Positions 5,725 to 55,669 of a stretch of 64,000 bases of DNA are shown here, one piece after another. Source of the DNA: Alphaproteobacteria bacterium (GTDB lineage Bacteria > Pseudomonadota > Alphaproteobacteria > Rs-D84); NCBI GenBank assembly GCA_031555055.1, contig JAVBUT010000006.1:3886-67885 (forward strand), given 5' to 3'. The translations under genes and the position numbers were made by a program. Every line of letters begins with the position of its first letter. Position 1 is the stretch's first letter. The notes below the pieces were generated by a model. It was not told the origin of the DNA and did not search any database. It was given only the letters and a program-made list of their open reading frames with translations.

Positions 5725-5818
5725 ACTTTTCCCTTCCGTGTTTAAAACATCCAACCCGTTCAGCATAATCAATAATATAAATATTCGCAATTAAAAAATC
5801 CAGCATTTGCCGGATATT

Positions 5819-14429: not shown

Positions 14430-15041
14430 TCAGTCCGAATAATTGCACGTCGAACCATATCTGTAATAACCATCGTTATTTTCAAAGGTATAGGTTGACG
14501 GCATAAAGCATGCGGTCTGGGGCATCAAACCTTCGGATACGGGCACAGGGACTGTTTCTCCGCATCTTTGGATACCATCCTTGTCGGTAAAACAAAGACA
14601 CCGGTTGCATACCGGTCCACCGGTATTCTGGACTTCCCACCAGTATCCAGCATGACATCTGTAATCATATATGCTGATACATTCGCATGTAATTGGATTC
14701 TGGTACGAGTATTCTATACGGTCATAATGCTTGGCGGGTTTTGGTGTCCAATTCCCCTCCAGCGTCAGGCATGGTCCACAAGGCTCAATCGGGCCGGAAC
14801 CACATCCCCTGGACGACGGGACACACACGCATTCCCCATTGCAATCCATCGCAACACATTCATCGGAACCGGATGCCGACATGCATTCCGAATCTGACCA
14901 TATCGCTACACCGCCACCGGAACTGCACGCCCCCCCAGGCGTAATTCCCAAGAACGCGCATGATACCGCATGTGCACCGCCGGTGACACAAAACGCGCAA
15001 CACAGCGCAACAAACATGAAAATCTTTTGGATAATTGGCAT
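14430..15041 (-). CDS. small cysteine-rich secreted protein
   Basis: Signal peptide MPIIQKIFMFVALCCAFCVTGGAHA. Many Cys. CECISIYDYRCHAGYWW...CNRC. Paralog of 15197-15787. Confidence 0.7.
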   Translation of the reverse strand: MPIIQKIFMFVALCCAFCVTGGAHAVSCAFLGITPGGACSSGGGVAIWSDSECMSASGSDECVAMDCNGECVCVPSSRGCGSGPIEPCGPCLTLEGNWTPKPAKHYDRIEYSYQNPITCECISIYDYRCHAGYWWEVQNTGGPVCNRCLCFTDKDGIQRCGETVPVPVSEGLMPQTACFMPSTYTFENNDGYYRYGSTCNYSD

Positions 15042-15196: not shown

Positions 15197-15787
15197 ATGT
15201 TTCATAAAAAAACTCTTTTATTGTTCTTTTGCGCGCTGATTGCGATCGGCACCACCACGGATGCGAATGCGGCGCTATGCTCTTACTATGGTTTATTACA
15301 GGGGTCTGATTGCACATTTTTTGTGGACAATCGCGTGGAAAATCAATGTTTTGGCATGGATTGCCGTTATGAAAATTGCAATGGCCAGTGCACATGTGTG
15401 GAAACCAGTAACAGTTGCGGCGGTTTTTTGTGTCCCGAATGCCCACGGGTATATGGCTGGCAGTCGGTTCCATCCATGCATTTTGATCGAAATGAACTTA
15501 ACGTACTCCAGGATATAGTTACATGCGAATGCACATACGAATATGAATACAGATGTCACGCTGGTTATTATCACAACGGCTCTTATGACTTTTTAATACA
15601 GCCCGGTTGCGTGCAATGCCCAAGCATGACCGATGTCAACAATTTCGTACGTTATGGGAATTCCACACCTGTTATTCTTCGCAACACCTCGCAATCCGTA
15701 TTGGATTGCTATATGTCCAGCACGTATAATTTCAAGGACACCCCTGGGACCTATCACTTTACCAATAACTGTAACGCAACACCATAA
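15197..15787 (+). CDS. small cysteine-rich secreted protein (divergent paralog)
   Basis: Signal peptide MFHKKTLLLFFCALIAIGTTTDANA. CECTYEYEYRCHAGYYH...CVQCPS. C-terminal CYMSSTYNFKD matches CFMPSTYTFEN of the neighbour. Confidence 0.7.
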   Translation: MFHKKTLLLFFCALIAIGTTTDANAALCSYYGLLQGSDCTFFVDNRVENQCFGMDCRYENCNGQCTCVETSNSCGGFLCPECPRVYGWQSVPSMHFDRNELNVLQDIVTCECTYEYEYRCHAGYYHNGSYDFLIQPGCVQCPSMTDVNNFVRYGNSTPVILRNTSQSVLDCYMSSTYNFKDTPGTYHFTNNCNATP

Positions 15788-15859: not shown

Positions 15860-15887
15860 TTGACAAATTATTTTTATGTATTATATT
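15860..15887 (+). promoter_or_regulatory. promoter-like TTGACA-N16-TATATT upstream of or overlapping the S8 autotransporter start
   Basis: ACTTGACAAATTATTTTTATGTATTATATT. If used, the mRNA would be nearly leaderless at ATG 15894. Confidence 0.4.
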
Positions 15888-15893
15888 TTCAGC

Positions 15894-17759
15894 ATGAGAA
15901 TGGTATCCAAGATTTTAATCGGGATTTTATGCGCGACCGTGTCATTGGCGCCCTGCTTTGCCGCGGATAAAAAATGCAATAATCGAGCATACCGGCAAAA
16001 CAATCCATCCAAATGTAAAACTGCTGAAAAAGCCGACGATTTATGGACGATCGCGCTGGTCGGCGGCGCGGCTGTTGCCGGCGCCGGGATTGCTTTGGCC
16101 GCAATGTCCGCCGGCGGCAACGACGGTTCCACAACCGGTTCCGCACCGGGATCAACTGGAAAAAGAATCCTGGTGCCGACAATGAAAATCTATGACACCG
16201 TCGGATATACGGACCCGAACTTGCTGGCGACGGCAATGTCCGCGACCGAATATGGCAAAAATCTGGAACACTATAACGAAATCCGACTGGCATATTCGCT
16301 GGCACGCGGCTTTACCGGAAAAAATTCTACCATTGCAGTTTTGGATACCGGCGACTACAGCTGGCATGGGACCGCGGTCGCAAATATCGCCGGCAACGCG
16401 ATTGCACCAAACGCCACAATAAATTCTTATAAAATCGTAAATGACAACGGCGACTTTTTATCATACGCCAAAATCGGCGAAATTATCGAATCGGAAAAAA
16501 ACGCGAAGATATTTAATTCCAGCTGGGGCATAACGACATACAACAATATCAGCGCCGCCAGCGTAAAAAGCCGCACGCAATTAGTGAATCTTACCAGCGC
16601 GAACTTTATAGATAATATAACGAGCGCCGCCACCGCACGCGATGCGATATTCGTATGGTCTGCCGGCAACGACGGAACCAAACAGAGCAACGCGTTGAGC
16701 GCTATGGGAAAAATCATTCCGGAATTGTCCGGTCATTTTATAAACGTTGTCGCATGGGATACAGCAACAGGCGAATTGGCCGAATACAGCAACGCCTGTG
16801 GCGTGACCCAGTTGTACTGTATAACCGCCCCCGGGTCCGATGTAAACATTGGCAGATTCGAAGTCAGCGGAACCAGCTTTGCCGCGCCGATGGTCGCCGG
16901 CGCCGTCGCCGTTATATCCGAAGCATTTCCATACATGACCGCGAATGAAATCACACAGTTGATATTCACAACCGCGCGCGATCTGGGGGCGGACGGAAAT
17001 GATGAAATTTACGGCTGGGGCATGCTGGACCTGGAACGCGCGACGCGCCCGGTGGGCGCCGCACTGGTACCATTGGGCGATGGCATGACGCCGCTGCGCA
17101 TGGCCAGCGCCAGCGGAACCATGGCGCGAAAATTGAAATCTGCAAATCTGCAGTTTGCATTTTTTGACAGCTTTGGCCGCGCGTTTACCGCGAACCTGAA
17201 CGACAATATTTCATTCACAGAACGCGGCCGCGGATTCGATCGTCTGCGTGCGGACGATCCGCGTGTCACATTCGCAGCGGGCAATTTCGAATTCGGATTT
17301 TCAAATGAAAACCTGCTGGTGGGCGACGGATTTTTACAAACGGATCAGAACAATCTGATCAGCTTTGTCGGATTGAAAAACGAATTCAATATCGGTGAAA
17401 TTAGCTTTTTCCAAAACGCGCGCGTCGGATTTTCCGCGCCGCGCGCGGCGTCCGAATCGTTTATATCCGGACTGTCGAACATATACAGCGCGTCTGCGAA
17501 ATTCGGCGCTGCCTGGCATGATTGGACACTTTCGATTTCAACACCGGAAACGATTATCGGTGGCGCCATGAATATGAATCTGCCGTACGCGCGCGCGGCA
17601 AATGGCGACATATTGTTTGCGAATTACGCCATTGATTTGGCGGAACGCCCGGCGCTGGAATATTCTATAAAGTACAAATTTTTGACCACATCGTTCATCG
17701 ACAATCCATTAACGCGCGACGAATTTTTCATAATGGCCAAGACAAAAATCGCATTTTAA
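15894..17759 (+). CDS. S8 (subtilisin-family) peptidase with autotransporter-like C-terminal beta-barrel
   Basis: AVLDTGD (Asp), SWHGTAVANIAG (His), SAGNDG (Asn), SGTSFAAPMVAG (Ser). The C-terminal about 250 aa are beta-strand-like and end in Phe (KTKIAF). Start uncertain (15876, 15894 or 15900). Confidence 0.8.
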   Translation: MRMVSKILIGILCATVSLAPCFAADKKCNNRAYRQNNPSKCKTAEKADDLWTIALVGGAAVAGAGIALAAMSAGGNDGSTTGSAPGSTGKRILVPTMKIYDTVGYTDPNLLATAMSATEYGKNLEHYNEIRLAYSLARGFTGKNSTIAVLDTGDYSWHGTAVANIAGNAIAPNATINSYKIVNDNGDFLSYAKIGEIIESEKNAKIFNSSWGITTYNNISAASVKSRTQLVNLTSANFIDNITSAATARDAIFVWSAGNDGTKQSNALSAMGKIIPELSGHFINVVAWDTATGELAEYSNACGVTQLYCITAPGSDVNIGRFEVSGTSFAAPMVAGAVAVISEAFPYMTANEITQLIFTTARDLGADGNDEIYGWGMLDLERATRPVGAALVPLGDGMTPLRMASASGTMARKLKSANLQFAFFDSFGRAFTANLNDNISFTERGRGFDRLRADDPRVTFAAGNFEFGFSNENLLVGDGFLQTDQNNLISFVGLKNEFNIGEISFFQNARVGFSAPRAASESFISGLSNIYSASAKFGAAWHDWTLSISTPETIIGGAMNMNLPYARAANGDILFANYAIDLAERPALEYSIKYKFLTTSFIDNPLTRDEFFIMAKTKIAF

Positions 17760-19088: not shown

Positions 19089-19943
19089 TTATTTCAAGTC
19101 AAACGAAGTTATGTAATTGAAAGATATCCCCAGGATCATATTGCTGCCGTACACATCTGCTTCGCGGGATTTAGCCAGACGATACTGGACATATGGGCCC
19201 AAAGTGAAACTGCCCCACAGGTTGGTATCCAGGCGCAAAACCGCAGACAGATCGCGTTCCAAATCCGTGCCGACATAATTCGAATAAGATAAATATTCGC
19301 GGTAATATCCGTTGGTGGATAATTTGACGCCTTCCCTTATTTCGTATTCCAGGCGCCATCCCAGTTCCGCCGCCAGCTTGTTAACCACGTTGTCAGAATA
19401 CGTGAAATCATATTCGTATACTGCGGACACATGCAGGTCTTTGACGATATCGTGATCGAATACAGCCAGACCGGTGTTTGCGCGCGCGATGTTTTGGCGT
19501 GGCGCATCACCGTTCGCAGTAAATTCCGTTTCATACTGGCCGCGTCCGGTCGGACCGAACTTAAACCCGGACGATTCCCAGCATGCGTACGACAGATCAC
19601 TGGAAAGCAAAATCTTGTCCGCATTTTCATTCGATGTGGCCACATCGTTATAAGGCTGCAGCTTTGTACGGCCGTATTCCATAAACACGCTGTTGTCCCA
19701 ATCCAGTCGTCCATGCTGGTATTCCAGCGCGACATCGGTCACGCCTTTGATAAATTCCTGGTTTGCCGCGGTCAGTGCAGCAATCGGCGAATCGGAATAT
19801 TCGGCCGCGTTCTGGACACTGGTCTGGGACAAGTCCAGCCCGATACGGCGAATATTCAGAACCAGTCCGGATGTTTGTGATTCTTCGGCGAACGCGCAAA
19901 CCGGCATTGCCATCGCGATTGCGATCAGTGATATTTTTTTCAA
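19089..19943 (-). CDS. putative outer-membrane beta-barrel protein
   Basis: Signal peptide MKKISLIAIAMAMPVCAFA. Alternating-hydrophobicity strands. Aromatic-rich C-terminus. Confidence 0.55.
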   Translation of the reverse strand: MKKISLIAIAMAMPVCAFAEESQTSGLVLNIRRIGLDLSQTSVQNAAEYSDSPIAALTAANQEFIKGVTDVALEYQHGRLDWDNSVFMEYGRTKLQPYNDVATSNENADKILLSSDLSYACWESSGFKFGPTGRGQYETEFTANGDAPRQNIARANTGLAVFDHDIVKDLHVSAVYEYDFTYSDNVVNKLAAELGWRLEYEIREGVKLSTNGYYREYLSYSNYVGTDLERDLSAVLRLDTNLWGSFTLGPYVQYRLAKSREADVYGSNMILGISFNYITSFDLK

Positions 19944-20246: not shown

Positions 20247-20864
20247 TTATTTTGAAACCCTTAGAAACCCATCCGTATCGGATACGCGCCAGCCGGCGCC
20301 GCGCACAGCGTTTATGAATGCCGCGCGACTGCTGGCCGGAATACCAATGGTCAGCGTCAAACCAGAGATTCTCTTTATTTCCGGTTTTATATTTTCATTT
20401 CGCAACGCGCGATTCAGTTCGACCAGGTCACGCAGACCGCCGGCCAGATCAATGACCACAACAGACCGGTCGACGGAAACACTTTCCCCCAGCCAGTTTT
20501 CGACATCGTTATCCGCCATCCATTTTTTAGCAGCCACCGCATCAATCGTCATCTTTATATTCGCAGAGTATGTTGTCGCGGACAAGCGTTCGCCATCGAT
20601 CGTCGTCGCCGATACTAAATTGGCCAGCGTCGCATCATTTGTGTTTTTCATCAGATCGCGAAAGTCCGCGCTGTTTGCATACGGCGACAAAGTTTCGGTC
20701 ACAATCTGCCGGCGCGCCTCGACGAACGCCATCGTTTTTGCAGTTGCCGCAGTGTCGCTTGTGACATTGACCGCCGCGGAACCGGTCAGGTCCGCCGCGC
20801 TTGCCGCAGAAATAAAAAACGAAAAACTAAAAATGAAAAATAACTTTAATATCTTTTTTTGCAC
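20247..20864 (-). CDS. secreted hypothetical protein
   Basis: Signal peptide MQKKILKLFFIFSFSFFISAASA. No recognisable motif. Confidence 0.55.
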   Translation of the reverse strand: MQKKILKLFFIFSFSFFISAASAADLTGSAAVNVTSDTAATAKTMAFVEARRQIVTETLSPYANSADFRDLMKNTNDATLANLVSATTIDGERLSATTYSANIKMTIDAVAAKKWMADNDVENWLGESVSVDRSVVVIDLAGGLRDLVELNRALRNENIKPEIKRISGLTLTIGIPASSRAAFINAVRGAGWRVSDTDGFLRVSK

Positions 20865-20912: not shown

Positions 20913-22433
20913 TTAAAACTTTGCGTTAAAGCCGACGCGGATTCCCAACGATTTATAGAAAGAATTCACTTCGCCGGATGTGCTGCATACCCATCCCGGA
21001 CATTCCGTCTCTATATTTTTGATATTGATTGCGGTTTGGTTTCCGGTATCCGGGTCCAGCATGTCGGCTTCGGTGAATCCATTGTCCAGCCATTCTTCCA
21101 GGATTGTGTCGTACACACCCATATAGAAGCCTTCGTTCAGATACGTTTTCGCGTCCGCATCGCTGACGCTGTAGTAATTGTATGTCATGCCCACCGTCAG
21201 CATTATGCTGTTCGTTATCGCGGTTGACCAATTTCCGGACAAACCAAAGTTTATTGCGGAACCGATACCTGCGGAATCTTCGATGCTTTTCGGGTGTTGC
21301 CAATCAAAGCGGTACGGCTGATCACCGATTGCCTCGTATCCGGGCAACCCCAGTTCAACGCGTGCACCCACGGAATTGTTCTGGTTAATATCATAAACCA
21401 TATCCAATGCCAAATAAGGACCAGACCACGTCACTTCATACGAATGGCTGGTACCGGGCTGTTGAAAATAATAAGTATCGCCGGTGTCAATGCTTTCGGC
21501 GTCATTGCCGACCGTCATTTCATCAGTTATGGAATCACGCCAAATTATCTGCTGAACCGTTGTACCGTTTGGCCCAGGATAGTTTACAATGATAGCCGGA
21601 TCGCATTGCATTTCATCGCTGTCGGGAACGCTGAAACACGCGGACGTCGCAAACGACAACCCGTAATTCTTATCCGTCTTTAATTTATAATTAAAGTGCC
21701 GGTAACCGATCGACGGTGTGATTCTGGTATTGCCCAGCTTGAAAAAATCCGTCAATCCAAATCCGACGTTAAAGCCGAACATGCTGCCGCCGCCGGTTGT
21801 CCCAACAGACAGCGCCTGGCCGAATTCGTTTCCGATCACGGTGTCGGTGGCTTCATCGATCCATTGCGTTATAAAGTATCCGCCGTTGGTTATGTCATCA
21901 TCGACCATGTATGATTCCGCGCCTTGGAATCCGAATTTCACCCCGGCGTCCACCTGCATTTTGGTATTTCCACCGAACACGTAGCCTGCGCCGATGTCAA
22001 AGACATTCCAAGCGATATTGTCATAGTGCAATATGCTGCCGGATTGGTTCATATCGAATTGCCATTGGGCGGTTTCATACGAATAACCACCGTTCAGATA
22101 AAAGCCCGACTGGGTTCCGGAATTCGGCTGTTTCTGCTGACCTTGCTGTTGCTGGCCACGCTGTTGGGGCTGACCCTGCTGCTGTTGCTGGTACGGCGAA
22201 TATCTTGAATAGTCAGAATCCGTATAGTTTCCGGCACGCGGCTGGGCTGTTGCGGGCTGGGCGTATCTTTGTGGCGTGTATCCGGTTTGAGAATATCCGG
22301 TCCGAACGTATCCTGGCTGGGCATAGGTATTCTGCGGCGACTGGTACCCACCGGTATAATAAGTTCCGGCCGCGTCGGCATAACCAATTCCGCCCAGTGC
22401 GCACAATACAGCAAACAAAGATATTTTCTTCAT
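20913..22433 (-). CDS. outer-membrane beta-barrel protein with Tyr/Gln/Pro-rich N-terminal low-complexity region
   Basis: Signal peptide. QQQQQGQPQQRGQQQQGQQKQ tract. C-terminal beta strands ending GIRVGFNAKF (terminal Phe). Confidence 0.7.
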   Translation of the reverse strand: MKKISLFAVLCALGGIGYADAAGTYYTGGYQSPQNTYAQPGYVRTGYSQTGYTPQRYAQPATAQPRAGNYTDSDYSRYSPYQQQQQGQPQQRGQQQQGQQKQPNSGTQSGFYLNGGYSYETAQWQFDMNQSGSILHYDNIAWNVFDIGAGYVFGGNTKMQVDAGVKFGFQGAESYMVDDDITNGGYFITQWIDEATDTVIGNEFGQALSVGTTGGGSMFGFNVGFGLTDFFKLGNTRITPSIGYRHFNYKLKTDKNYGLSFATSACFSVPDSDEMQCDPAIIVNYPGPNGTTVQQIIWRDSITDEMTVGNDAESIDTGDTYYFQQPGTSHSYEVTWSGPYLALDMVYDINQNNSVGARVELGLPGYEAIGDQPYRFDWQHPKSIEDSAGIGSAINFGLSGNWSTAITNSIMLTVGMTYNYYSVSDADAKTYLNEGFYMGVYDTILEEWLDNGFTEADMLDPDTGNQTAINIKNIETECPGWVCSTSGEVNSFYKSLGIRVGFNAKF

Positions 22434-22892: not shown

Positions 22893-23008
22893 ACTGGTAG
22901 ACGCGCAGGCTTGAGGTGCTTGTGAAGAAATTCGTATGGGTCCGAGTCCCATTAACCCCACCAGGCTTCGCCCGACCATTGACTATTGACTAATATCTAA
23001 CTTTCCCC

Positions 23009-23038
23009 TTGCCCCGAAATTCCGAAATTTGCTAACAT
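23009..23038 (+). promoter_or_regulatory. putative promoter (TTGCCC-N18-TAACAT) shared with the paralog at 43423-43452
   Basis: The block TTTCCCCTTGCCCCG..A.TT....AATTTTGCTAACAT...CC.AAGGA-ATGAGAAA is conserved upstream of both genes. Confidence 0.5.
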
Positions 23039-23050
23039 AAGCCCTAAGGA

Positions 23051-26000
23051 ATGAGAAAACTTAAGGCTCTTTTATTTGTATGCCTTGTCCCGCTTGCTTT
23101 GCACGCGGCTGTTGCCGATGATGCACTGGACGCGGCGCGCGCCGCAAAACGCGGCGTTACGAACACAATCGCCACCAGCGCAACCACAGGTCGCGGACAA
23201 TCTGGAAATTCAGATATTCTGACATCGCCGACGGCGACCCGTGTGCCCGCCGGATCACCACAAAAAACCGATACCCCCCAGGCCCGCGTAATCGCACCAC
23301 GCGACAATGCCGTCACTGCCGAACAATCCAGGTCCGCCACGACCCAAGCCGTCGCGCCACGCACACCCGGCAATGTCCAGCAACGCGCCGCAACCACCAC
23401 ACAAAAAGTTATCGACCAATCCAGAACCGCTGTCGCGCGGACCACGGCTGGCGCACCCGCCACCACCGCGCGCACTGCGACGACGGCCCCGAATGCATCG
23501 CGCGCGGCCGCAACCAATGCCGGGCGCAGTGCAACCGCACCGGTCGGACGCGCGCGCAACGCAACGTCATCGCATGTCGCACGCAGTGCGCTGGACGCCG
23601 AAGCGATCGCAAAAGTCGGTCAAAAAGATTTCAAAAAATGCCGTGAAGTTTATTACCAGTGCATGGACGAATTCTGTGCGAACAAAGACACCCAGTTAAA
23701 GCGCTGTGCCTGTTCTGCCAAGGTTCATAATTTCGACGGAATTAAACAACAAATGTCCCAGGTCGAAGACAAAATGCTGGACTTTAACGAGCGCCTGCTG
23801 ACCGTCAGTATGGAAAAAGAAGACGCCACGGCAATATCGATTGCTACAACCGGCGAACTGGCGTTCCAGACAGATGACAAATCCACGTCGAAAAAAATCC
23901 TGGATGAAATAACTAAAAAACTTAAATCCGAAACCGCAGAAACCGACATGTCGCGCAATCTGTCGGCGATATCGCTGTCTTTGGATACGGATTCTGCATT
24001 CGACACAATTGATTCCATGCTGGGGGCCGGCACGACGGTCAAGGAAGGAACCGCGCTGTACGCGGCCGCCCTGCCCGTTTGTCGCGAAATGGCGGCCGAG
24101 GTATGCGACGCGGACGCCTTGGCAATCGCGCAAAGCGGATACCAGATGGCGATTGAACAGGACTGCAACACGGTTTCAAAAACATACGAAACCATGCGCA
24201 ACACCGCCTTGGAAAAGGTCCGCGAAGGCAGTGCGCTGTTGGAAATGTCACGACTGGACATTCACCAGAAACGCAATTCCGACGACATCCTGACGTGCAA
24301 GAAAAAGATGCTGGACATGATGTCCGACGTGTCCGTTTGCGGCACAGACCTGGGCAAGTGTCTGGACACGACCGGCAAATATATCGATCCTTCGACGGGC
24401 GAAGCATTCCTGACCGTCAACCTGGCGGATTTGGACAAACTGATCACACGCCCCGCCAGCGACCAGAAATGGATATCCGTACCGGGCAACGAAAAATTCG
24501 TCACATTTATGAATTCGAAAAAGAAATATCTGGAACCGGCGATGGAAAATTGCCAAGACATATCGGACCAGGTATGGACAATGTTTTTGGAAGACGCGCT
24601 GGCCCAGATTAAAATCGCCCAGTCGCGTAAACTGGAAGATATGCGCCAAAGCTGTACCAGTCTGACCACCCAGTGCCTGTCCGACACGGCGAAATCCATA
24701 TCTGAATTCGATGCGCGCGCGCTGTCTATTTTCGGGGTAAGCGCGGACAAAACCGTGAACGAAATGTGCACCAGTGTAAAGTCCGCCTGCACCGCGCTGT
24801 TACAAACCACCAGCACCGAGGCAGACTGGGTCGGCGGCATGTCCGAAATCCAAACCGACAAAACATACGACACAATCGTCCAGACTTGCCGCGAAGTCGG
24901 CAAGGCGTGTATCATCCAGACATGCAAATCGGTATCCGGTAACTTTGGCCTGTGCGAAAGCATTGACAAGTCCGTCAACAGAAAATCCATCATCAACCGC
25001 ACGTCATGCTGGAACGAAGTGGTCCAGTGTGTCCAGTCCGCTGGCGCCACATCCATCGCCAGTGTCATGAAACGACACGCCAAGGCCGCAGACGCATCCG
25101 GCGGCGGAAACTTTTATGTCGAAAACTATGGCAAATTACCGGTCCGCGTCCAAGACCCGTTGCCTGTTCAGTGTAATCCAAAGACCGTAACAAATTCCGA
25201 CGGCACCACGACGCCCGGCCAGAATTGCGTTTACGACATCTGCGCTGATTGCGGACAACCGTACAAGCCTACATGCGAAGTATGCCGTCTGGCCGAAAGC
25301 ATTTGGGGCAACTGCGAATTCAAACCGACCGAACAATTAAGCGCCGGCGGATATAACAGGATTAAAAAGACTGTCAAAGATCGTGAAACGTTGTTGTCAT
25401 GGTTTGACACGAACACCGGCACCACCACCAACACCGACAGTTGTCGCGACACATCGTGTCCCGCAGGCAGCTTCCTTAACGCGCCCGGCGGCTATTGCGT
25501 CCCCAGTGACCAGATGTCTTCGGACCTGCTTGAATGCGTACAGGAAAAACAGTTCGACGTATCGACAACATTGACGCCCAGCTTTACAAACTGCTGTACA
25601 TCTGGGATATATGACGTTTATGGAAATTGCTGTATCGGTGGCAACGTTACGATTCCCGGAATGTTCCAGAATAACGCGACCAGCTATTACATCACCCCAA
25701 GCACCATCACCCCCCCGGCCAGTTCTTTGGATGTGTGCACGCAATCTTCTGGCACCGATGCGAAATTGACGGCTGGATTCCGTCTGATGTCGGATCAGAC
25801 ATACATACGTGCCGGCATGAATTTCCTGGTCTGTGTTGGTGGCACACTGCGCGGAACCAATCCGACGACCGCGTTCCCGTCCGGACAGACCGTCGAATGC
25901 GATGGTGGCAAGTTTATGATGATAAACAATAATGACGGAACATATGCAACACCGCATTACGCGACCAAGGTTGACGGGACACCCGACCCGACCCAGTATC

Positions 26001-26194
26001 CGACTTCCCCGGCCAATTATTATAACCTGAATTCCCAGGATACGCCGCAGACGGCATGCATATTGAATCTTTCGTCCAAGATATGGGCGACCAAGGGTGG
26101 CAACCCGAACACCAGCAATCCCGCTTGCATTAAAACCGGGGTCGCTCCTGATTTCTACCCAACGGCATTTAATAAAAAGTTCATCGGATATTAA
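23051..26194 (+). CDS. giant cysteine-rich secreted protein, family member P1 (1047 aa)
   Basis: Signal peptide MRKLKALLFVCLVPLALHA. Arg/Ala/Thr-rich low-complexity spacer. CREVYYQCMDEFCANKDTQLKRCACS signature. Long region with paired Cys. Cys-rich C-terminal third. Confidence 0.85.
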   Translation: MRKLKALLFVCLVPLALHAAVADDALDAARAAKRGVTNTIATSATTGRGQSGNSDILTSPTATRVPAGSPQKTDTPQARVIAPRDNAVTAEQSRSATTQAVAPRTPGNVQQRAATTTQKVIDQSRTAVARTTAGAPATTARTATTAPNASRAAATNAGRSATAPVGRARNATSSHVARSALDAEAIAKVGQKDFKKCREVYYQCMDEFCANKDTQLKRCACSAKVHNFDGIKQQMSQVEDKMLDFNERLLTVSMEKEDATAISIATTGELAFQTDDKSTSKKILDEITKKLKSETAETDMSRNLSAISLSLDTDSAFDTIDSMLGAGTTVKEGTALYAAALPVCREMAAEVCDADALAIAQSGYQMAIEQDCNTVSKTYETMRNTALEKVREGSALLEMSRLDIHQKRNSDDILTCKKKMLDMMSDVSVCGTDLGKCLDTTGKYIDPSTGEAFLTVNLADLDKLITRPASDQKWISVPGNEKFVTFMNSKKKYLEPAMENCQDISDQVWTMFLEDALAQIKIAQSRKLEDMRQSCTSLTTQCLSDTAKSISEFDARALSIFGVSADKTVNEMCTSVKSACTALLQTTSTEADWVGGMSEIQTDKTYDTIVQTCREVGKACIIQTCKSVSGNFGLCESIDKSVNRKSIINRTSCWNEVVQCVQSAGATSIASVMKRHAKAADASGGGNFYVENYGKLPVRVQDPLPVQCNPKTVTNSDGTTTPGQNCVYDICADCGQPYKPTCEVCRLAESIWGNCEFKPTEQLSAGGYNRIKKTVKDRETLLSWFDTNTGTTTNTDSCRDTSCPAGSFLNAPGGYCVPSDQMSSDLLECVQEKQFDVSTTLTPSFTNCCTSGIYDVYGNCCIGGNVTIPGMFQNNATSYYITPSTITPPASSLDVCTQSSGTDAKLTAGFRLMSDQTYIRAGMNFLVCVGGTLRGTNPTTAFPSGQTVECDGGKFMMINNNDGTYATPHYATKVDGTPDPTQYPTSPANYYNLNSQDTPQTACILNLSSKIWATKGGNPNTSNPACIKTGVAPDFYPTAFNKKFIGY

Positions 26195-26221: not shown

Positions 26222-26240
26222 GGGCGAATATGATTCGCCC
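26222..26240. repeat. REP hairpin GGGCGAATATGATTCGCCC between the P1 and pth 3' ends
   Basis: Same variant as 3584-3606 and 40670-40692. Confidence 0.8.
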
Positions 26241-26832: not shown

Positions 26833-27384
26833 ATGAAATTAAAAACAGCGGGTCTTTTGACCATCATCAGCGTACTGGGCGTCAGCGGCGCTGCACATGC
26901 CGAAGATACGATTGCTTTTTACGTCGGCGGCAACCTGGGGTTGGGCGGCGCGACGCTTTTCGCCGAACACGACACCGAAAGCGCCGGCGCAATCAGCTAT
27001 GGCGCGATGTTCGGTGTGGATATCCCGCTGGTCCGTATCGAAGCGGAATACAATTATTTGGACAATGATAATTTTAACACCAATCTGGCCATGGCGAACG
27101 TTTATCTAAAGTTGCCTTCGGTGGTTGTTCACCCGTACATCGGCGCGGGCGCCGGCGTTTCGTTTGACGGCAAAATGCACGTGACACACCACACGCACTT
27201 GAACGCGGAAACCGCACCGGCGTTCCAAGGCATGATGGGAATAACGTTCGATATCCCGGTCGCACCGTTAAAGGTTGATGTCGAAGGACGTCTGCTGTAC
27301 ATACCGGATGCTTTTGAAATCTTTAACTCCAGCTCTGATTTGTTGCAATACGAAGCACGCGTAAAGCTGAGATTAATGTTTTAA
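26833..27384 (+). CDS. small outer-membrane beta-barrel protein (OmpA-like 8-strand / OMP_b-brl type)
   Basis: Signal peptide ending AHA. YVGGNLG and YIGAGAGV strands. C-terminal ARVKLRLMF. Confidence 0.75.
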   Translation: MKLKTAGLLTIISVLGVSGAAHAEDTIAFYVGGNLGLGGATLFAEHDTESAGAISYGAMFGVDIPLVRIEAEYNYLDNDNFNTNLAMANVYLKLPSVVVHPYIGAGAGVSFDGKMHVTHHTHLNAETAPAFQGMMGITFDIPVAPLKVDVEGRLLYIPDAFEIFNSSSDLLQYEARVKLRLMF

Positions 27385-30705: not shown

Positions 30706-31524
30706 TTATTTCAGTGCCTTGATAATCTGATCGTACGGTATCGCACCTGGGAAAGCCTGGTCGCCGATGATCAGGAACGGTGTGCCGCCAATTTGAAAGC
30801 GTTCCGCCAAATCACGAACCTGGGCCAATTCACGCGCGACAACTTCGCCGTTCATGTCTTTTTCCAGACGTGTTGTGTCCAAGCCGGCTTCTTTTGCGAT
30901 TTTCATAACGTTCGCAGTCAGCTTTGCCGGGGCTTTGGCCTGGTCTTTCATATCGTCCTGGGTGTAATATTCGCCAGCCATCAAAGCGTGATCCAATGCG
31001 ACCGCTTTGTCATTGCCCTGCAATTTCGCAGCGATAACCGCACGTGCCGGAACATCGGACAATACGCCGTGTATGCTGAAGTTCTTCAGAACAACGCGAA
31101 CGTCGTCACGATCAGCCAATACGCGTTCCAATTCGCCATGTACGCGACGGCAGTATCCGCAAGAATAAGCGCTGAACAAGAATATTGTCTTTTCTGCGTT
31201 TTCTTTGCCCAGAACCGGCGCATCGGCAATCATTTTATCCATGTTTGCACGAACGTATTTGCGAACTTCCTTGCTGGCTTCGTTTTGTTTTTGTTCCTGC
31301 ATTCCTGTTGCCATTTCCTGCAGAATACCAGGGTTAACAGATGTCAGATAGTATGGCGTAACCAAACGGCATACGGAACCTGCAATCAAGATAACCGCCA
31401 GAACTTTGATTGAATTTTTTGCAAAGTGTGTCCCAGCTGATGGTTTGCCGCTTTGCTTGAACAGCAATCCGCCGCACAAGTATAACGCAACAGCCAATAC
31501 CAGAACCAGTATTGTCCAAGTCAT
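30706..31524 (-). CDS. DsbA-family thiol:disulfide oxidoreductase with N-terminal membrane anchor
   Basis: FSAYSCGYCRRVH (CxxC in a thioredoxin fold), N-terminal TM helix, C-terminal GTPFLIIGDQAFPGA. Confidence 0.8.
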   Translation of the reverse strand: MTWTILVLVLAVALYLCGGLLFKQSGKPSAGTHFAKNSIKVLAVILIAGSVCRLVTPYYLTSVNPGILQEMATGMQEQKQNEASKEVRKYVRANMDKMIADAPVLGKENAEKTIFLFSAYSCGYCRRVHGELERVLADRDDVRVVLKNFSIHGVLSDVPARAVIAAKLQGNDKAVALDHALMAGEYYTQDDMKDQAKAPAKLTANVMKIAKEAGLDTTRLEKDMNGEVVARELAQVRDLAERFQIGGTPFLIIGDQAFPGAIPYDQIIKALK

Positions 31525-31738: not shown

Positions 31739-32980
31739 TTACAACATCTGGCGCGCCACCGGCAGAGTGATTCCGTGCTGTTCGCACGCACGTTCCAAAA
31801 ACTTTTTCAGCACATCCAGCGTCAGCGGTAATTTATGCAGCCTGTTTAAATACGGCGCGGCGCATTCGTCGCAAACGGCGCGTCCGGTCTTTGGCGACAG
31901 ATAATTCAAGCTATCTTTCTTGCCGCACCCGGAACAGCGCGACATATCCAAAGCATATCCCAAATCCGCCAGAAAATTTATTTCCCACGAAAGATACAGA
32001 TTTTTTTTATCATCCTGACTCTGTCGCGTCTCCCCCTGCTTGCGGGGGGAGTGGTCGCAAAGCGACCGAGGGGGGTGATTATCAATAACTTCTTTGGGAT
32101 AAAAATTCTGCAATGGTGGGATTTCATTTTCATGCGTTAAATAATAGTAAATATTATCCAGAACATTTTGCAAGTCCCTGATCACAGCGTCATTCCAAAA
32201 ACGAATTGTGCGATATCCGGAATCCTGCAAGAATTTATCGCGCACAGCATCGTGATAAATTTGTTGTTGTTCTCCATGATGTTCACCATCTAATTCAACG
32301 ATTAATTTTGTTTTTCTGTTTACAAAATCCGCAATATAGTTTCCGATCGGCATCTGTTTTACAAAATCAAACCCGCCGTTTGATCCGCTTAAATTTTTCC
32401 ACAGAATCGCTTCGTGTTTTGTTAGGTTTTTCCGTAATGATTTTGCAAAGACTTGTGCCTGGGGCGCACAACGGTTCACCCCCCTCGCCCACTCTGTGGG
32501 CGCTCCCCCCGCAAGCGGGGTGAGACGTGCTTTTGGTCCAAGCATATCAAACACTCCGTCGCATCTCCCCCCGCTTGCGGGGGGAGTGGTCGCAAAGCGA
32601 CCGAGGGGGGTGACAGCCAAACTGTGCAGTAAATTTTTCGTGCGTATAAACAGTGTCTCGTACTTTTCGCGTTCCGGCAATAATGCCGCGATCAGTGCGA
32701 ACATCGAATTCATTATCCCCAGCGTCCGCGGGTCAGACATCAGCGGCGCAGCCATGTTTTTTTCCGCTTCCCAGTGAAACGCCCCCAGTTGCGAATCCAG
32801 TCGCGCGTTCCATGACACGCCACCCACCTGGCCCACCAGCGGTTTGTTTTTCCGGGCAACTTGGGCACCCGTCAGCATGCCGGTCATGACGCCATAATCA
32901 TGTGTAAAAATCACGCCGATCGAATCGCGTTCGCCGAACGGCCGCAAAGCAATCAAAATTCCCGTCGATTCCAGTTTCAT
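31739..32980 (-). CDS. recO: DNA repair protein RecO carrying a 199-codon in-frame insertion
   Basis: N-terminal OB fold MKLESTGILIALRPFGERD. C-terminal Zn finger MSRCSGCG...YLSPKTGRAVCDEC. The two halves are separated by 32018-32614 (see the mobile_element feature). Confidence 0.8.
   Translation of the reverse strand: MKLESTGILIALRPFGERDSIGVIFTHDYGVMTGMLTGAQVARKNKPLVGQVGGVSWNARLDSQLGAFHWEAEKNMAAPLMSDPRTLGIMNSMFALIAALLPEREKYETLFIRTKNLLHSLAVTPLGRFATTPPASGGRCDGVFDMLGPKARLTPLAGGAPTEWARGVNRCAPQAQVFAKSLRKNLTKHEAILWKNLSGSNGGFDFVKQMPIGNYIADFVNRKTKLIVELDGEHHGEQQQIYHDAVRDKFLQDSGYRTIRFWNDAVIRDLQNVLDNIYYYLTHENEIPPLQNFYPKEVIDNHPPRSLCDHSPRKQGETRQSQDDKKNLYLSWEINFLADLGYALDMSRCSGCGKKDSLNYLSPKTGRAVCDECAAPYLNRLHKLPLTLDVLKKFLERACEQHGITLPVARQML
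32018..32614 (-). mobile_element. DUF559 (Vsr-like endonuclease fold) module flanked by GC-rich palindromic elements, translated in frame inside recO
   Basis: Core LRKNLTKHEAILWKNL...GNYIADFVNRKTKLIVELDGEHHGEQQQIYHDAVRDKFLQDSGYRTIRFWNDAV is the DUF559 pattern. It is bounded by copies of TCxCCCCGCTTGCGGGGGGAG-hairpin-GAGGGGGGTGA at 32019-32082, 32476-32527 (inverted) and 32556-32614. Length 597 bp, or 199 codons. Confidence 0.65.
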
Positions 32981-33001
32981 AGGATAAAGTATACAGCAAA
33001 T

Positions 33002-33030
33002 AAAAAAATCCCGCAACGCGGGATTTTTTT
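33002..33030. terminator. AAAAAAATCCCGCAACGCGGGATTTTTTT hairpin, copy 1 (3' of the orphan gene, upstream of recO)
   Basis: The 29-bp core is identical to 34061-34090. Confidence 0.7.
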
Positions 33031-38106: not shown

Positions 38107-40620
38107 CATCTTTATGTCTTCACATTTTGGTTCGGATACTTTGGTTTCACATGATGTGTTGCGGCTGTTGTGGAACCATGAACTGCTGCCTGTGGTTTTG
38201 CAATCTTCGGTCATTGTCGTCGTACAGACATGACAGTTGCGATCCGCGCGATTGAATATCGCGGTCGTTTCCTTGGTCATGCCGCCGCCTTCCAACTTTC
38301 CGCCACCCAAATATCCGGTATTGCTGAACTTTACACCGCCGGCTTTTAAGACACCTGCCCCGCCACGTGTCAAATCCGCCAGCGTCAATCCCGCGCCGAC
38401 ATCGTATGAAATCGCATACGGCGGTGTCAGCGGCGTATCAAGGCTGACATTGCCCAATCCGGCGACACTGCTGCCTTCGGCAATTTTCTGACACATGTAC
38501 TGCGCCAGGTCCGCGGACGCGTCTTTGGTCGCGTCTGCAACGGCGGCGGTAAATTTCGCGTTATAGTTATCGTTCGCCTTGCGCAGTGCGCTTGCAGCGA
38601 TCTGGACCTTGACCGAGTTCAATATGTTCGGATAACGTGCAGTCGTGCTTTTCGCCTTGCCCGTGATTTGCGACATATCGCGGCCGTTTATACAGTATTG
38701 GATTTCCTGGTCCTGTTCGATCATCTTGATCGTACGGTTGATTGACCCGGCGATATGGTTCAGCTCTTCGGATATCGACGACATGATTCCGTCAAAGTTC
38801 GCGACGCCAGCGTTCCGGTTCCGCACCTGTTCCAGATAATCCTGGACACCGATTTCACCCGGTCCCAACTTTACGACTTTATTGTTAACCCGTTCGGTTA
38901 TTTTGCCGGTTTCATCGCCCATTTTGACACTGCCGAATGAAATCATTCCGGTCACGCGATAGACATTGCCGTCTTTTTGCGCACGCAAAGAATTTGTTCC
39001 AATAACATCGTCTTTGGCGAACATGGTGTCACAGTTCGTGGTACCGCCACAGACTTCGGCCATTTTGCGATCGACGGCCGCCTGGCACGCATCGGCCAAG
39101 GAATTATCGATATTCAGATACAGTCCGGTCAGCATAGTGTCCAGATCAGACATCGCGAATTTCGGATTATTTTTCCGACACACGACCAGTTTATCCAGCG
39201 GGCAAATTTCGCGGATATATCTGTAATCCATACCGATACAGTTTGTAAAATCGGTTCCACAACGATCGGGTGATGTAAAGCATTCTTTGACCTCGGCCGT
39301 GCAAGCGTCGACACGCTGGGCCGCCAGTTTATCGGTTACATATGTCCATATATTTGGTTCCATACGTTCACAGCGGTCAATTTCAACCTTGCAGAAACTG
39401 CGCGCCATATTCGGATACGCCAAGCACGCATCCATGGTTGCGACACCTTTGCCTTCGATATCGACCTTGCACGAATTCAATACGCATTCCGAAACCGTCG
39501 TCAGACATCCTTGGCGCATTTTCGATTCGGCGGTTTGTTCCGCGACTTTTATCGTCGGCGCGGCTTCACGCAGAAACGCCGGATAAACCATATCGCGCAC
39601 AACGACACAACTGTTTAAAACGTTTTCGCAAATCGTGCGTTTCGCATCTAACATTTCCAAAGTAGAATCTGTTATGTCATACACCGACACATGCGCAACC
39701 TTGGTTTTCGCAGTAGATTTCGCCGTTAAATTTTGCATATTTTCCGACGCGATGCTTGAAACGCATTTCGACCAGTCGGCCCCGCACGCGTCGTTTCCTT
39801 GCATACATTCGCGGAATTTGACCATACACTGCCCCAGGTCGTATTGGTTCGCGGCCTTGAAACTGGCGTCCAGCGCGCCACGGACCGCAGCGTTCGCTTC
39901 GGCCAATTCCAGATCAGCCGCCGCTTTTTCTTTTGTGACAAAGTTCTCGAACGTTTTGCAGTCCGACTTTATCTGGGTCGAATACATCTGGGTCAGGAAC
40001 GACATTTCCTTTGTGCAAGAATCCGGCAATTGGCCGCGGCACAAAGTGTTCGCAGAGTTATACAGCGCGGCGCCTTTTTTGGTCGCAATAGAATCAATTA
40101 TGTCTTCGGAAAATTCTTCTTCGTACGGCGTTTCAAACAGCGCCATCAAGTCTGCACGCTTTTTCGCCTTGTCTTCTGCCGCGGTTACGGATGTGGATTT
40201 TATAATATTCCCAGCGGCGTCATAGTTGCGCATTCCGCCGAATATAATATCTTCACGACCACCGGCCTGGATACGTTCTACTTCGATGGTTCTGATATTT
40301 TCCGCATTGGCTTTTTGTGTTTCTATATCGGCCAGTTGTTTTAAAAACTTTTCATTTTCATCACTGCACGCGCATGATCCGCCGGCAGCATTATCAACAA
40401 TGCAAAACTGGTCCATGCATCCGTAATATTTGTCATAGCATTCCTGGGTGAACAATCCCGTCGGCGCAACCTTGGCACGGACATTTGTGCCGGATTGCAC
40501 AACCGATTGGCTTTTTGTTGCGGCCGTTCGCACAGACGACGATGGCGCCGGCGCCGCGAACACTGGCAAAATGAAAAATGAAAAATGAAAAATGAAAAAT
40601 GATGTTAAAATTTTTCTCAT
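38104..40620 (-). CDS. giant cysteine-rich secreted protein, family member P2
   Basis: True start MRKILTSFFIFHFSFFILPVFA at 40620. The track ORF adds MVGADIICPK.. read through a REP. Signature CYDKYYGCMDQFCIVDNAAGGSCACS. C-terminus NCHVC...CEDIKM. Confidence 0.85.
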   Translation of the reverse strand: MRKILTSFFIFHFSFFILPVFAAPAPSSSVRTAATKSQSVVQSGTNVRAKVAPTGLFTQECYDKYYGCMDQFCIVDNAAGGSCACSDENEKFLKQLADIETQKANAENIRTIEVERIQAGGREDIIFGGMRNYDAAGNIIKSTSVTAAEDKAKKRADLMALFETPYEEEFSEDIIDSIATKKGAALYNSANTLCRGQLPDSCTKEMSFLTQMYSTQIKSDCKTFENFVTKEKAAADLELAEANAAVRGALDASFKAANQYDLGQCMVKFRECMQGNDACGADWSKCVSSIASENMQNLTAKSTAKTKVAHVSVYDITDSTLEMLDAKRTICENVLNSCVVVRDMVYPAFLREAAPTIKVAEQTAESKMRQGCLTTVSECVLNSCKVDIEGKGVATMDACLAYPNMARSFCKVEIDRCERMEPNIWTYVTDKLAAQRVDACTAEVKECFTSPDRCGTDFTNCIGMDYRYIREICPLDKLVVCRKNNPKFAMSDLDTMLTGLYLNIDNSLADACQAAVDRKMAEVCGGTTNCDTMFAKDDVIGTNSLRAQKDGNVYRVTGMISFGSVKMGDETGKITERVNNKVVKLGPGEIGVQDYLEQVRNRNAGVANFDGIMSSISEELNHIAGSINRTIKMIEQDQEIQYCINGRDMSQITGKAKSTTARYPNILNSVKVQIAASALRKANDNYNAKFTAAVADATKDASADLAQYMCQKIAEGSSVAGLGNVSLDTPLTPPYAISYDVGAGLTLADLTRGGAGVLKAGGVKFSNTGYLGGGKLEGGGMTKETTAIFNRADRNCHVCTTTMTEDCKTTGSSSWFHNSRNTSCETKVSEPKCEDIKM
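40568..40601. repeat. heptanucleotide tandem repeat (AAAAATG x4 plus a partial unit) inside the signal-peptide codons of P2
   Basis: Minus-strand TTTTTCA units encode ..SFFIFHFSFFIL... The unit length is not a multiple of 3. Confidence 0.85.
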
Positions 40621-54934: not shown

Positions 54935-55669
54935 TTAGTTAAAAAAAGAAAATATATACGGTGCAACGTCATCGGTCATCGCAAAATCCGCACATGCACC
55001 AGGACAGTCCTTTCCACAGTTGCTAAGTGTTCCAATAATCGGTGCCAATATCCAGTAACCGTTTGTCGCATCTATTTTTCTTTTTGCACGGCACCAACAA
55101 TACCCCCCACCCCAGCTATATGTTGGCGTACCTATGCGTGTCTCTGGATCGTCCATCTGATTTTTAGTACTGCACATTGCCTGGATATAATAGTACGGAT
55201 AAACATTTGCCTGTCTCAGCCTTTCCTCTAGATCGGTCGAAATTGTCACCGAAGTTATAGTATAGTTCGGATGCAATGCATTAAATTCTGACGAGTATGT
55301 ATAAATCTCTGAATAATCATCTATGGCCAATTGCAAATACGGATCACCATCGGATAAAGACACCAAAGAATCAATCGTACCGATCACAGCATTCGTGTCG
55401 ACAACCTGTTGCGACGCCAGCGCATTGTCGCAATATCTGACCGCCGGTAATTCCGAATTCAGCTCTTGATTAACAACATCGACCGTGCACAACAGATACT
55501 TCATATTGGCGGCCTGGGTTTGCAAAGGATTGGCAATATTTATATTTACCGAATGCTTTTGATTTATGTAATCGTGAATGTATTTAACATTGGCGATCTG
55601 CGCGGCAATCACGTCCGACGAAACACAAAGCACTCCAAAAAACACTGATAAACAAAACCTTGTCATCAT
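54935..55669 (-). CDS. secreted protein with CWCRAKRK motif, paralog A
   Basis: Signal peptide. N-terminal QIANVKYIHDYINQKHSVNINIANPLQTQAANMKYLLC. C-terminal GGGYCWCRAKRK...CGKDCPGAC. Confidence 0.7.
   Translation of the reverse strand: MMTRFCLSVFFGVLCVSSDVIAAQIANVKYIHDYINQKHSVNINIANPLQTQAANMKYLLCTVDVVNQELNSELPAVRYCDNALASQQVVDTNAVIGTIDSLVSLSDGDPYLQLAIDDYSEIYTYSSEFNALHPNYTITSVTISTDLEERLRQANVYPYYYIQAMCSTKNQMDDPETRIGTPTYSWGGGYCWCRAKRKIDATNGYWILAPIIGTLSNCGKDCPGACADFAMTDDVAPYIFSFFN

Follow-up and report, generated by a model that had tools for sequence, protein, structure and literature searches.

In a stretch of 64,000 nucleotides (nt; hereafter the window) from contig JAVBUT010000006.1, which belongs to the order Rs-D84 of gut Alphaproteobacteria, four open reading frames (ORFs), here named P1, P2, P3 and P4, encode one family of large cysteine-rich secreted proteins. 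The four are homologous, carry export signals, have a fixed cysteine pattern with an almost always even count, evolve under strong constraint, lie in a conserved gene order and are modelled as long helices; on these grounds the formation of disulfides, assembly and binding may be presumed, either in the periplasm or at the cell surface. Judged from profile searches and predicted structures, neither the family nor its predicted fold has been described, and databases show the proteins only as "hypothetical", although very remote homology could still exist. The reading favoured here, tentatively and at somewhat less than even confidence, is that P1–P4 are disulfide-stapled, rod-like helical structural proteins of the envelope or surface, a function and a localisation that are suggested by the features set out below.

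The four paralogs and their relatives in Rs-D84

The first-pass annotation of the window had reported four ORFs of one architecture, and ORF checking, BLASTP and MAFFT bear this out, with the coordinates and strands as given in Table 1 and all four frames intact; only the word "giant" was generous for proteins of 700–1050 amino acids (aa). The signature blocks quoted there are also exact: in a six-frame scan, the pattern C-x3-[YF]-x2-C-M-D-x-F-C-x(6-12)-C-x-C-S occurs exactly four times in the 64 kb, once in each ORF. Pairwise BLASTP among P1–P4 gives E values from 1e-12 to 4e-47, and the MAFFT alignment gives 21–28% identity with about 20 invariant Cys, so that the resemblance is one of homology and not of chance. 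The P1 stretch VCGTDLGKCLDTTGKYIDPSTGE aligns with the P4 stretch ACGKDYVHCLDITGKYLNNTTGE, as had been proposed for the long helical region with conserved Cys, and the helical character of this region is reproduced in two AlphaFold2 models. An internal duplication of the core was considered for the spacing C-x6-C-x4-C-x9-C, which is found twice in P1 (aa 197–219 and 613–635, both starting with CREV), and no repeat is claimed; hhalign of core sub-alignments gave nothing significant, with probabilities of 0.4–15%, the best of them overlap artefacts.

Each of the four proteins begins with the predicted signal peptide that had first been noted, composed of a basic n-region, a hydrophobic core (Kyte–Doolittle 1.7–1.9) and an AxA-like cleavage site. 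The Cys within the signal peptides stand in the contexts LFVC, AVLC, APLC and VALC, that is to say, with V or L at −1, and are followed by AxA-type signal peptidase I sites; no lipobox [LVI][ASTVI][GAS]C is found at the signal-peptide end of P1–P4, and the lipoprotein candidate was rejected for this reason. Past the signal peptide, a Kyte–Doolittle scan shows no hydrophobic or transmembrane segment in P1, P3 and P4. The ORFs of P2 and P3 can be extended upstream to 42905 and 40665, respectively, with a signal peptide only from the starts chosen in the first-pass annotation. The spacer that comes next is Cys-free, A/T/R/S-rich and basic in all four (66 aa with net charge +2 in P2, 38 aa with +3 in P3), whereas the R-[ST]-A units said to recur in it do so only in P1 (five) and P4 (six), with one in P3 and none in P2. 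Outside the spacer, each paralog is acidic. The C-termini diverge between the paralogs as described, but they are Cys-dense only in P1 and P4.

Rs-D84, comprising Candidatus Enterousia and its relatives, is reported as an uncultured lineage widespread in the guts of humans, ruminants, horses, chickens, mice and termites, with genomes of less than 1 Mb, no respiratory chain, an incomplete glycolysis, few transporters, and normal rod-shape and peptidoglycan machinery, and its predicted lifestyle is that of a probable obligate, partner-dependent symbiont or parasite (PMC12306168). The homologues found with a profile of the four cores come from metagenome-assembled genomes (MAGs) labelled Alphaproteobacteria, Rickettsiales or Candidatus Enterousia. 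A genome scan found at least 569 family loci in GTDB species genomes, of which the 80 best (L001–L080) were used for the comparisons of synteny and orthologues; these MAGs come from the gut, rumen and faeces of humans, ruminants, horses, chickens and mice, and among them are genomes of 0.72 and 0.96 Mb that are closed. An exhaustive hidden Markov model search of 1.84 billion representative proteins yielded at least 883 clusters (50% identity) at E<=1e-3 and 547 at E<=1e-30, and the nearest paralog of the top 140 clusters is P1 in 59, P4 in 50 and P3 in 31. A separate search with P2 gave 956 proteins, the best 120 listed being about 60% identical over the full length. All named members are called "hypothetical" except one P2 orthologue, to which NCBI gives the name "glycine zipper family protein". 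These searches suggest that the four paralogs are ancient and that their family is known so far from Rs-D84-like MAGs only; together, the four genes occupy some 10 kb, or roughly 1% of a genome of this kind.

Some database entries need care. L001 (OZ246409.1) is titled Muribaculaceae and L021 (CAVGNU010000008.1) Bacteroides fragilis; both contain most of the Rs-D84 syntenic block, with the genes in common with the window 43–71% identical, and the records are probably mislabelled or contaminated bins. In addition, gene callers often start P1-type proteins at a Met inside the signature (MDEFCANKD...), as in the public entries P0004-P0006, P0008, P0012, P0015, P0016, P0020 and others; the signal peptide and the basic spacer are thereby lost, so that these P1-type entries look non-secreted. 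The NCBI-derived entries identical to P3 and P2 of the window also use other starts, giving 798 and 737 aa, respectively.

Table 1. Coordinates of P1–P4, their parts and the associated genes and elements, numbered from the first letter of the window.
Feature	Position	Strand	Remarks
P1	23051-26194	+	1047 aa; 42 Cys in mature protein
P1 signal peptide	23051-23107	+	predicted
P1 basic Cys-free spacer	23108-23638	+	177 aa; net charge +13; isoelectric point 11.6
P1 signature	23639-23716	+	CxxxYxxCMDxFC..CxCS block
P1 conserved core (predicted helical)	23639-25030	+	aa 197-660; 22 Cys
P1 C-terminal head	25031-26191	+	variable; Cys scaffold
P4	43463-45829	+	788 aa; 29 Cys in mature protein
P4 signal peptide	43463-43525	+	predicted
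P4 basic spacer	43526-43870	+	115 aa; net charge +12; Cys-free
P4 signature	43871-43948	+	predicted helical core continues to about 45154
P4 C-terminal region	45155-45826	+	variable; one weak CxxCPxG unit like those of tumour necrosis factor receptor (TNFR) and ephrin receptor
P2	40692-42806	-	704 aa; 34 Cys in mature protein
P2 signature	42474-42551	-	core to about 41355
P2 glycine-zipper hairpin	40746-40880	-	Cys on both flanks
P2 terminal CEDINM	40695-40712	-	
P3	38104-40620	-	838 aa; 36 Cys in mature protein; tandem, downstream of P2
P3 signature	40363-40440	-	predicted helical core to about 39049
P3 C-terminal region	38107-39048	-	helical and beta-hairpin; ends NCHVC...CEDIKM
Promoter-like element of P1	23009-23038	+	TTGCCC, 18-nt spacer, TAACAT with preceding TG (extended -10); ends 13 nt before ATG
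Promoter-like element of P4	43423-43452	+	homologous to P1 element, TTGCCC..TGCTAACAT; ends 11 nt before ATG
Terminator-like hairpin	26222-26240	+	28 nt past P1 stop codon; consensus match only
DUF3078 outer-membrane protein	19089-19943	-	Pfam; transcribed divergently from P1
205-aa secreted protein	20247-20864	-	divergent from P1
Pom-family (Protochlamydia outer-membrane porin) barrel	20913-22433	-	506 aa; Pfam 37 bits against cut-off 22; Q/Y/G/P-rich low-complexity N-terminus
Cys-rich protein directly downstream of P4	45826-46581 / 45874-46581	+	251-aa longest ORF / 235-aa secreted protein; 9 Cys in mature chain, 10 with signal peptide
DsbA-family thiol-disulfide oxidoreductase	30706-31524	-	membrane-anchored; CGYC active site; Pfam DSBA 65.5 bits

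Cysteine pattern, predicted fold and C-terminal modules

Downstream of the signature, the number of Cys is even in 71 of 77 P1-type proteins (range 36–46), in 118 of 119 P2-type proteins and in 100 of 118 representatives of the family. Since the parity is nearly always even, Cys are gained and lost in pairs, as is expected for intramolecular disulfides, and this points to intramolecular stapling rather than to a chlamydia-like intermolecular network. In the P1-type core, all 22 Cys are invariant across 77 sequences. The prevailing spacing is Cx6C, located at helix ends and hairpins.

AlphaFold2 models were built for P1 without its tail and for P3, with a predicted local distance difference test (pLDDT) of 70.8 and 75.5, respectively. 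The cores in both models lie largely at pLDDT 80–94 and contain helices of 35–58 residues, which supports a core predicted as a rod-like bundle of very long helices. Relatives of known kind were sought in several ways: Pfam-A (2025) and NCBIfam (2026) show nothing above cut-off for P1–P4; three family profiles have no match among PDB sequences, even at E<=10; Foldseek finds nothing below E = 0.9 in PDB for the P1 and P3 models and nothing below E = 0.5 in BFVD for the P1 model; and the literature found on Enterousia and Rs-D84 contains no description of proteins of the P1–P4 type. The first-pass statement that the proteins fit no named family therefore holds. The only whole-length Foldseek alignments, all of them non-significant, are with helical proteins of rod-like shape, among them MukB, JetC, colicin Ia, MUN and Exo70. 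When the P1 core was searched by tblastn, no match was obtained in 50,697 phage or 72,556 plasmid records, and on the strength of these searches, together with the empty BFVD result, an origin from a mobile element was rejected. Two further candidates were rejected. For a type V autotransporter, there is no Autotransporter match in Pfam, the models show small Cys-rich sheets and hairpins and not a long amphipathic barrel, and the C-terminus of P1 is polar and Cys-dense; for a Sel1-like-repeat Cys-rich protein (Helicobacter Hcp type), Pfam gives no Sel1 or TPR match at E<=1.

The two ends of the P1-type proteins evolve differently from the core. The N-terminal tail has a net charge of +10 to +27 in all orthologues, with the remainder of the protein acidic, while its sequence and length vary and its ratio of non-synonymous to synonymous substitution (dN/dS) is 0.13–0.37. 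In the C-terminal head, the top-residue frequency is 0.2–0.5 with the Cys scaffold retained, and dN/dS is 0.08–0.51; the synonymous divergence (dS) of the head is 3–7 times that of the core and the flanking genes in several close genome pairs, which argues for replacement of the head by recombination. The P4-type C-terminal regions vary widely in length and contain from about 13 to 70 Cys, and in P4 itself, residues 637–665 (CNPGYY..C..CPSGYEC) reach 13.9 bits as an Ephrin_rec_like/TNFR-like unit, below the cut-off of 33.2. P2, by comparison, is conserved from end to end, including NCHVC, a glycine-zipper hairpin and the final C...CEDINM. The hairpin, AGGLSAGAAAGTM..PGWGTAIGGVVGAVGG, is present in all 40 of the P2 orthologues sampled and is the most hydrophobic segment of P2 outside the signal peptide (Kyte–Doolittle 1.71 in a 15-aa window), and residues 634–687 score 12.2–14.4 bits against the glycine-zipper families PF13488 and PF13441, whose cut-offs are 25–29. 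P3 ends in the same way with NCHVC and CEDIKM, beta-hairpins taking the place of the zipper, and its last 315 aa or so contain only 6 Cys.

The invariant terminal C-E-D-[IV]-x-M is common to P2-type and many P3-type proteins (in the window at 40695-40712 and 38107-38124), and many P1-type C-termini among L001–L080 have a hydrophobic-x-aromatic motif at or near the end, such as FIGY, FIKY, ITY or ISY. Such C-terminal motifs could be tags for a PDZ protease (an S41 Ctp is encoded at 4261-5790) or for a sorting machine.

Constraint, promoter-like elements and gene neighbourhoods

Of the 80 species genomes, 76 have an intact P1-type ORF, which encodes 734–1132 aa, all but one of the proteins having at least 875 aa. 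In close genome pairs, dN/dS of the P1 core is 0.018–0.086, compared with 0.058–0.076 for PolA and 0.02–0.14 for Pth in the same pairs; that is, the core is constrained as strongly as PolA. Upstream, the motif CTTGCCC-N15-TGCTAACAT has only two sites in the window, located 11–13 nt ahead of the ATG codons at which P1 and P4 start, and AAGGA is the ribosome-binding site of P1. The same promoter-like element and ribosome-binding site precede most of the P1-type genes examined elsewhere, despite diverged surrounding intergenic DNA, and a related element, CTTGCCC-N15-TGATATTAT, stands upstream of a P4 orthologue in L081. A sigma-54 reading of the TTGCT motif was rejected, for there is no conserved GG 10 nt upstream and a sigma-70-type −35/extended −10 fits better. 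The first-pass annotation had named disruption in related genomes or lack of expression as evidence that would count against the family; the intact frames, the strong purifying selection and the conserved P1-type element speak the other way, and P1–P4 are real, constrained and expressed-looking genes. Just upstream of the promoter-like elements of P1 and P4, there are also tandem 7-bp repeats, TATTGAC/TATCGAC, in 2–4 copies (22977-22992 and 43384-43413), which recur in the intergenic region after the 251-aa gene (46639-46661). The 9-mer of the TATTGAC-type repeat occurs 22 times with at most one mismatch, against 8.9 expected, and the repeats may be an operator, an UP-like element or a genome-wide intergenic repeat.

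Around the intact P1-type ORFs of the 76 genomes, one gene order is kept, namely DUF3078 outer-membrane protein, 205-aa secreted protein, Pom-family porin (divergent from P1), P1, pth, OMP_b-brl barrel, polA and dsbA. The DUF3078, 205-aa and Pom genes adjoin the P1-type gene in most of the 80 genomes, and this synteny suggests that the three divergent genes may be functionally tied to it. DsbA lies in the same syntenic block wherever the loci of related genomes extend that far, and it is the candidate oxidase for the P1–P4 family. A tie of P1–P4 to the envelope and to disulfide chemistry, as first proposed, is supported by the order-wide synteny of P1 with three outer-membrane (OM) or secreted proteins and with DsbA, as well as by the even Cys parity, but the same parity favours links within molecules over the links between molecules then envisaged. 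The genes of the second cluster, which run small Cys-rich partner, P4, infA, P2, P3, likewise keep their order in another genome. The longest ORF of this Cys-rich protein, which has no Pfam match, overlaps the stop codon of P4, and the two genes are probably co-transcribed; the same gene order is seen in another genome, where the protein is 45% identical.

Between the P1-type gene and pth, many relatives have an insertion that is absent from the window (L001, L003, L005, L007, L015, L016, L037, L062 and L065). It comprises 1–3 small lipoproteins of about 150 aa and a secreted protein of 340–470 aa with 20–35 Cys, and two of the inserted Cys-rich proteins (L003 and L015) exceed the Pfam cut-off for Ephrin_rec_like. 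For secreted Cys-rich genes, the P1 locus thus has the look of a hot spot.

The other genes to which the first-pass annotation had drawn attention are present too, namely the OM barrels (the DUF3078 and Pom proteins, 26833-27384 and 57468-58205), DsbA and five small Cys-rich secreted proteins. Of these five possible partners of P1–P4, the 251-aa protein downstream of P4 is the only one shown as a conserved neighbour. Two of the others, at 14430-15041 (−) and 15197-15787 (+), are divergent paralogs, 31% identical, with 9–11% Cys (22 and 18 Cys) and no Pfam match, and this pair sits upstream of a secreted S8 subtilase at 15876-17759. The remaining two, 54935-55669 and 55694-56443, are tandem paralogs (58% identical); they and an OmpA-like barrel (57468-58205) adjoin the gene at 56453-57436 (−), whose secreted product of 327 aa contains collagen triple-helix repeats (PF01391, 94.6 bits). 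Elsewhere in the window, the RecO gene at 31739-33016 (−) has a DUF559 (Vsr-like endonuclease) domain apparently inserted between RecO_N (aa 13–77) and RecO_C (aa 334–413), which is unusual for a recombination mediator.

Known analogues and possible functions

Chlamydial OmcB combines a signal peptide with an N-terminal adhesive domain, basic and diversifying, and with a structural body that is Cys-rich and conserved (PMC2229832). By analogy, this 60-kDa cysteine-rich protein from the outer-membrane complex of chlamydiae (COMC) would be the closest functional counterpart of P1–P4: a Sec signal, a basic N-terminal region that varies among lineages and a Cys-rich body, strongly conserved and presumably structural, are found in both, both come from small-genome bacteria that depend on a host or partner, and the divergent neighbour of P1 belongs to the family of the Protochlamydia porin. 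However, P1–P4 match no chlamydial outer-membrane protein family in Pfam (at E<=1) or NCBIfam, and their spacers lack the XBBXBX motif; they are four paralogs, each with a different C-terminal module; their parity suggests intramolecular staples and not an intermolecular network; and they are modelled as long helices, whereas beta-rich repeats are expected as the OmcB fold. Membership in OmcB/Chlam_OMP6 is excluded by the missing profile match, the missing XBBXBX and the helical rather than beta-rich model.

Other likenesses concern single parts. The two-segment, GxxxG-rich hydrophobic hairpin of P2 resembles glycine-zipper OM (lipo)proteins (Gly-zipper_Omp and YMGG; SlyB/Pcp and Rickettsia 17-kDa antigen type), but P2 scores far below the Pfam cut-offs and has no lipobox, its zipper is a small Cys-clamped C-terminal appendage of a 700-aa Cys-rich rod, and P1, P3 and P4 have no zipper at all. 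Twin CX9C/CX3C domains of the CHCH type are disulfide-stapled helical hairpins, and the variant surface glycoprotein (VSG) of trypanosomes forms an elongated helical-bundle surface coat. P1–P4 appear to resemble the former in fixed-spacing Cys pairs on antiparallel helices and the latter in a long helical bundle as the secreted or surface body with smaller Cys-rich domains; unlike them, they are bacterial, Sec-exported and mostly Cx6C, they are 10–20 times larger than CHCH domains, their helical part is conserved and not variable, and Foldseek gives no match to such structures. As for the ephrin-receptor-like and TNFR-like modules (PF07699 and PF23091) of Giardia variant-specific surface proteins and other extracellular proteins, the likeness is confined to one C-terminal unit of P4, with a match below threshold; the cut-off of PF07699 is passed only by the unrelated secreted Cys-rich genes beside the P1-type gene (L003 and L015), and such modules form no part of the core that defines the family.

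If P1–P4 are disulfide-stapled helical rods of the envelope or surface, they would be exported by Sec, cut by signal peptidase I and then folded with oxidation, for which the syntenic DsbA is probably responsible, into an elongated bundle made up of the very long helices (35–58 residues), whose ends and hairpins would be stapled by about 10–20 intramolecular disulfides, often of the Cx6C type. The helical core would serve as the conserved scaffold or assembly module, and the Cys-free polycationic tail might be a flexible binder of anionic polymers, either the lipopolysaccharide or peptidoglycan of the cell itself or, on a partner or host, its glycans or surface. P2 would be tethered to the membrane via its conserved glycine-zipper hairpin, and P1 and P4 would display fast-evolving, disulfide-scaffolded heads outside for attachment, the head of P1 being exchanged by recombination. 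The synteny of P1 with the Pom-family porin, the DUF3078 and OMP_b-brl barrels and DsbA is consistent with this, as are the extracellular-type Ephrin_rec_like modules in the extra Cys-rich genes at the P1 locus of other genomes.

Several points weigh against it. No OM export route is recognised in P1–P4 by Pfam and NCBIfam, and a Sec substrate with no lipobox, autotransporter barrel or two-partner secretion domain would be periplasmic by default. The housekeeping-level conservation of the core is unusual for an adhesin stalk and suits an essential periplasmic role equally well or better. The predicted template modelling score of the two models is only 0.46–0.47, so that their overall shape is uncertain; even Cys parity also agrees with metal sites of four Cys; and the heparin-binding motifs XBBXBX and XBBBXXBX are found in none of the four spacers. 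In addition, the classical DsbB route for the re-oxidation of DsbA needs quinones. Rs-D84 genomes have been reported without respiratory chains (PMC12306168), so that the re-oxidation of DsbA is puzzling and unexplained, and this affects every reading based on disulfides.

The main rival, in itself somewhat doubtful, is a periplasmic scaffold or strut, in which stapled rods that never leave the periplasm, held in place by the zipper of P2 and by the basic tails, would connect the OM with the peptidoglycan or the inner membrane and set the rigidity or width of the envelope. Such a role may be likened to that proposed for the Cys-rich body of OmcB, or to Lpp, and the lineage may lack the usual tethers. 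A Sec signal with no recognisable OM export module, the strength of core constraint, the full-length conservation of P2 and the synteny with OM barrels, DsbA and an OmpA-domain protein would all agree with it, and the modelled helices of about 5–9 nm have a plausible scale for spanning part of the periplasm. On the other hand, the fast, recombining head of P1 and the variation of P4-type proteins in length and Cys are unusual for buried periplasmic domains, the ephrin-receptor-like modules in the sister genes are typical of extracellular proteins, and a substitute sacculus is not obviously needed given the normal rod-shape and peptidoglycan machinery of Rs-D84 (PMC12306168). A further possibility, distinctly unlikely, is a hetero-oligomeric surface organelle of a kind not known before, built from all four paralogs and perhaps also from the small Cys-rich partners and the syntenic barrels of the Pom-like and DUF3078 types. 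This helical fibre or coat, stapled by disulfides, would have a new fold and cross the OM by a new route; Rs-D84 would use it to attach to a partner cell or the host mucosa and to feed on it, and the recombining P1 head and the variable P4 head would set partner specificity.

It is very improbable that P1–P4 are secreted polymorphic toxins, bacteriocins or effectors, in which a conserved N-terminal module, made up of a disordered tail and a helical rod as in colicins and pyocins, would deliver variable C-terminal domains for killing or host manipulation. The contrast between a conserved N-terminal part and a C-terminal region that varies and, in P1, recombines, the presence of colicin Ia and pyocin S5 among the non-significant Foldseek alignments and the predicted parasitic lifestyle (PMC12306168) would suit such proteins, but Pfam and NCBIfam contain no matching toxin family or domain, and the place of an immunity-like gene next to P1 is taken by pth in the window and by lipoproteins and a secreted Cys-rich protein elsewhere; a colicin-like or polymorphic toxin was rejected as a candidate for these reasons. 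The genes are, moreover, single-copy syntenic core genes throughout the order and not accessory cassettes, P2 is conserved to its end, the C-terminal regions keep a Cys scaffold and resemble binding modules, and the phage and plasmid searches with the P1 core were empty. Least probable among the explanations weighed here are metal-binding or redox-active periplasmic proteins, whose invariant Cys would ligate Zn, Fe or Fe-S or, in a strict anaerobe, buffer thiols or provide a sink for electrons. The very many invariant Cys, CxC and CxxC included (CACS, CHVC), and a non-respiring anaerobic organism in which the re-oxidation of DsbA is unexplained would fit; yet Cx6C on helices dominates over the classical metal-site motifs, the number of Cys among orthologues changes by two and not by four, the conserved gene block includes a DsbA oxidase, and no cofactor-binding family is matched in Pfam or NCBIfam.

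The kind of biology proposed by the favoured reading is already known from disulfide-rich secreted envelope and surface proteins of host-associated diderms, the family itself being non-homologous to the known ones. The four genes also make one ask by what means dozens of disulfides are formed in each protein in an anaerobe that has no quinones. P1–P4, which are conserved in the Rs-D84-like genomes examined and escape current annotation, are the most obvious candidates for how Rs-D84 builds its surface or contacts its partner. If they do form an envelope or attachment apparatus, they would offer handles (antibodies, pull-downs, tail peptides and head domains) for the identification of the partner or receptor and for cultivation, and they would represent a probable new disulfide-stapled helical fold and a Cys-rich envelope logic apparently independent of the chlamydial one.

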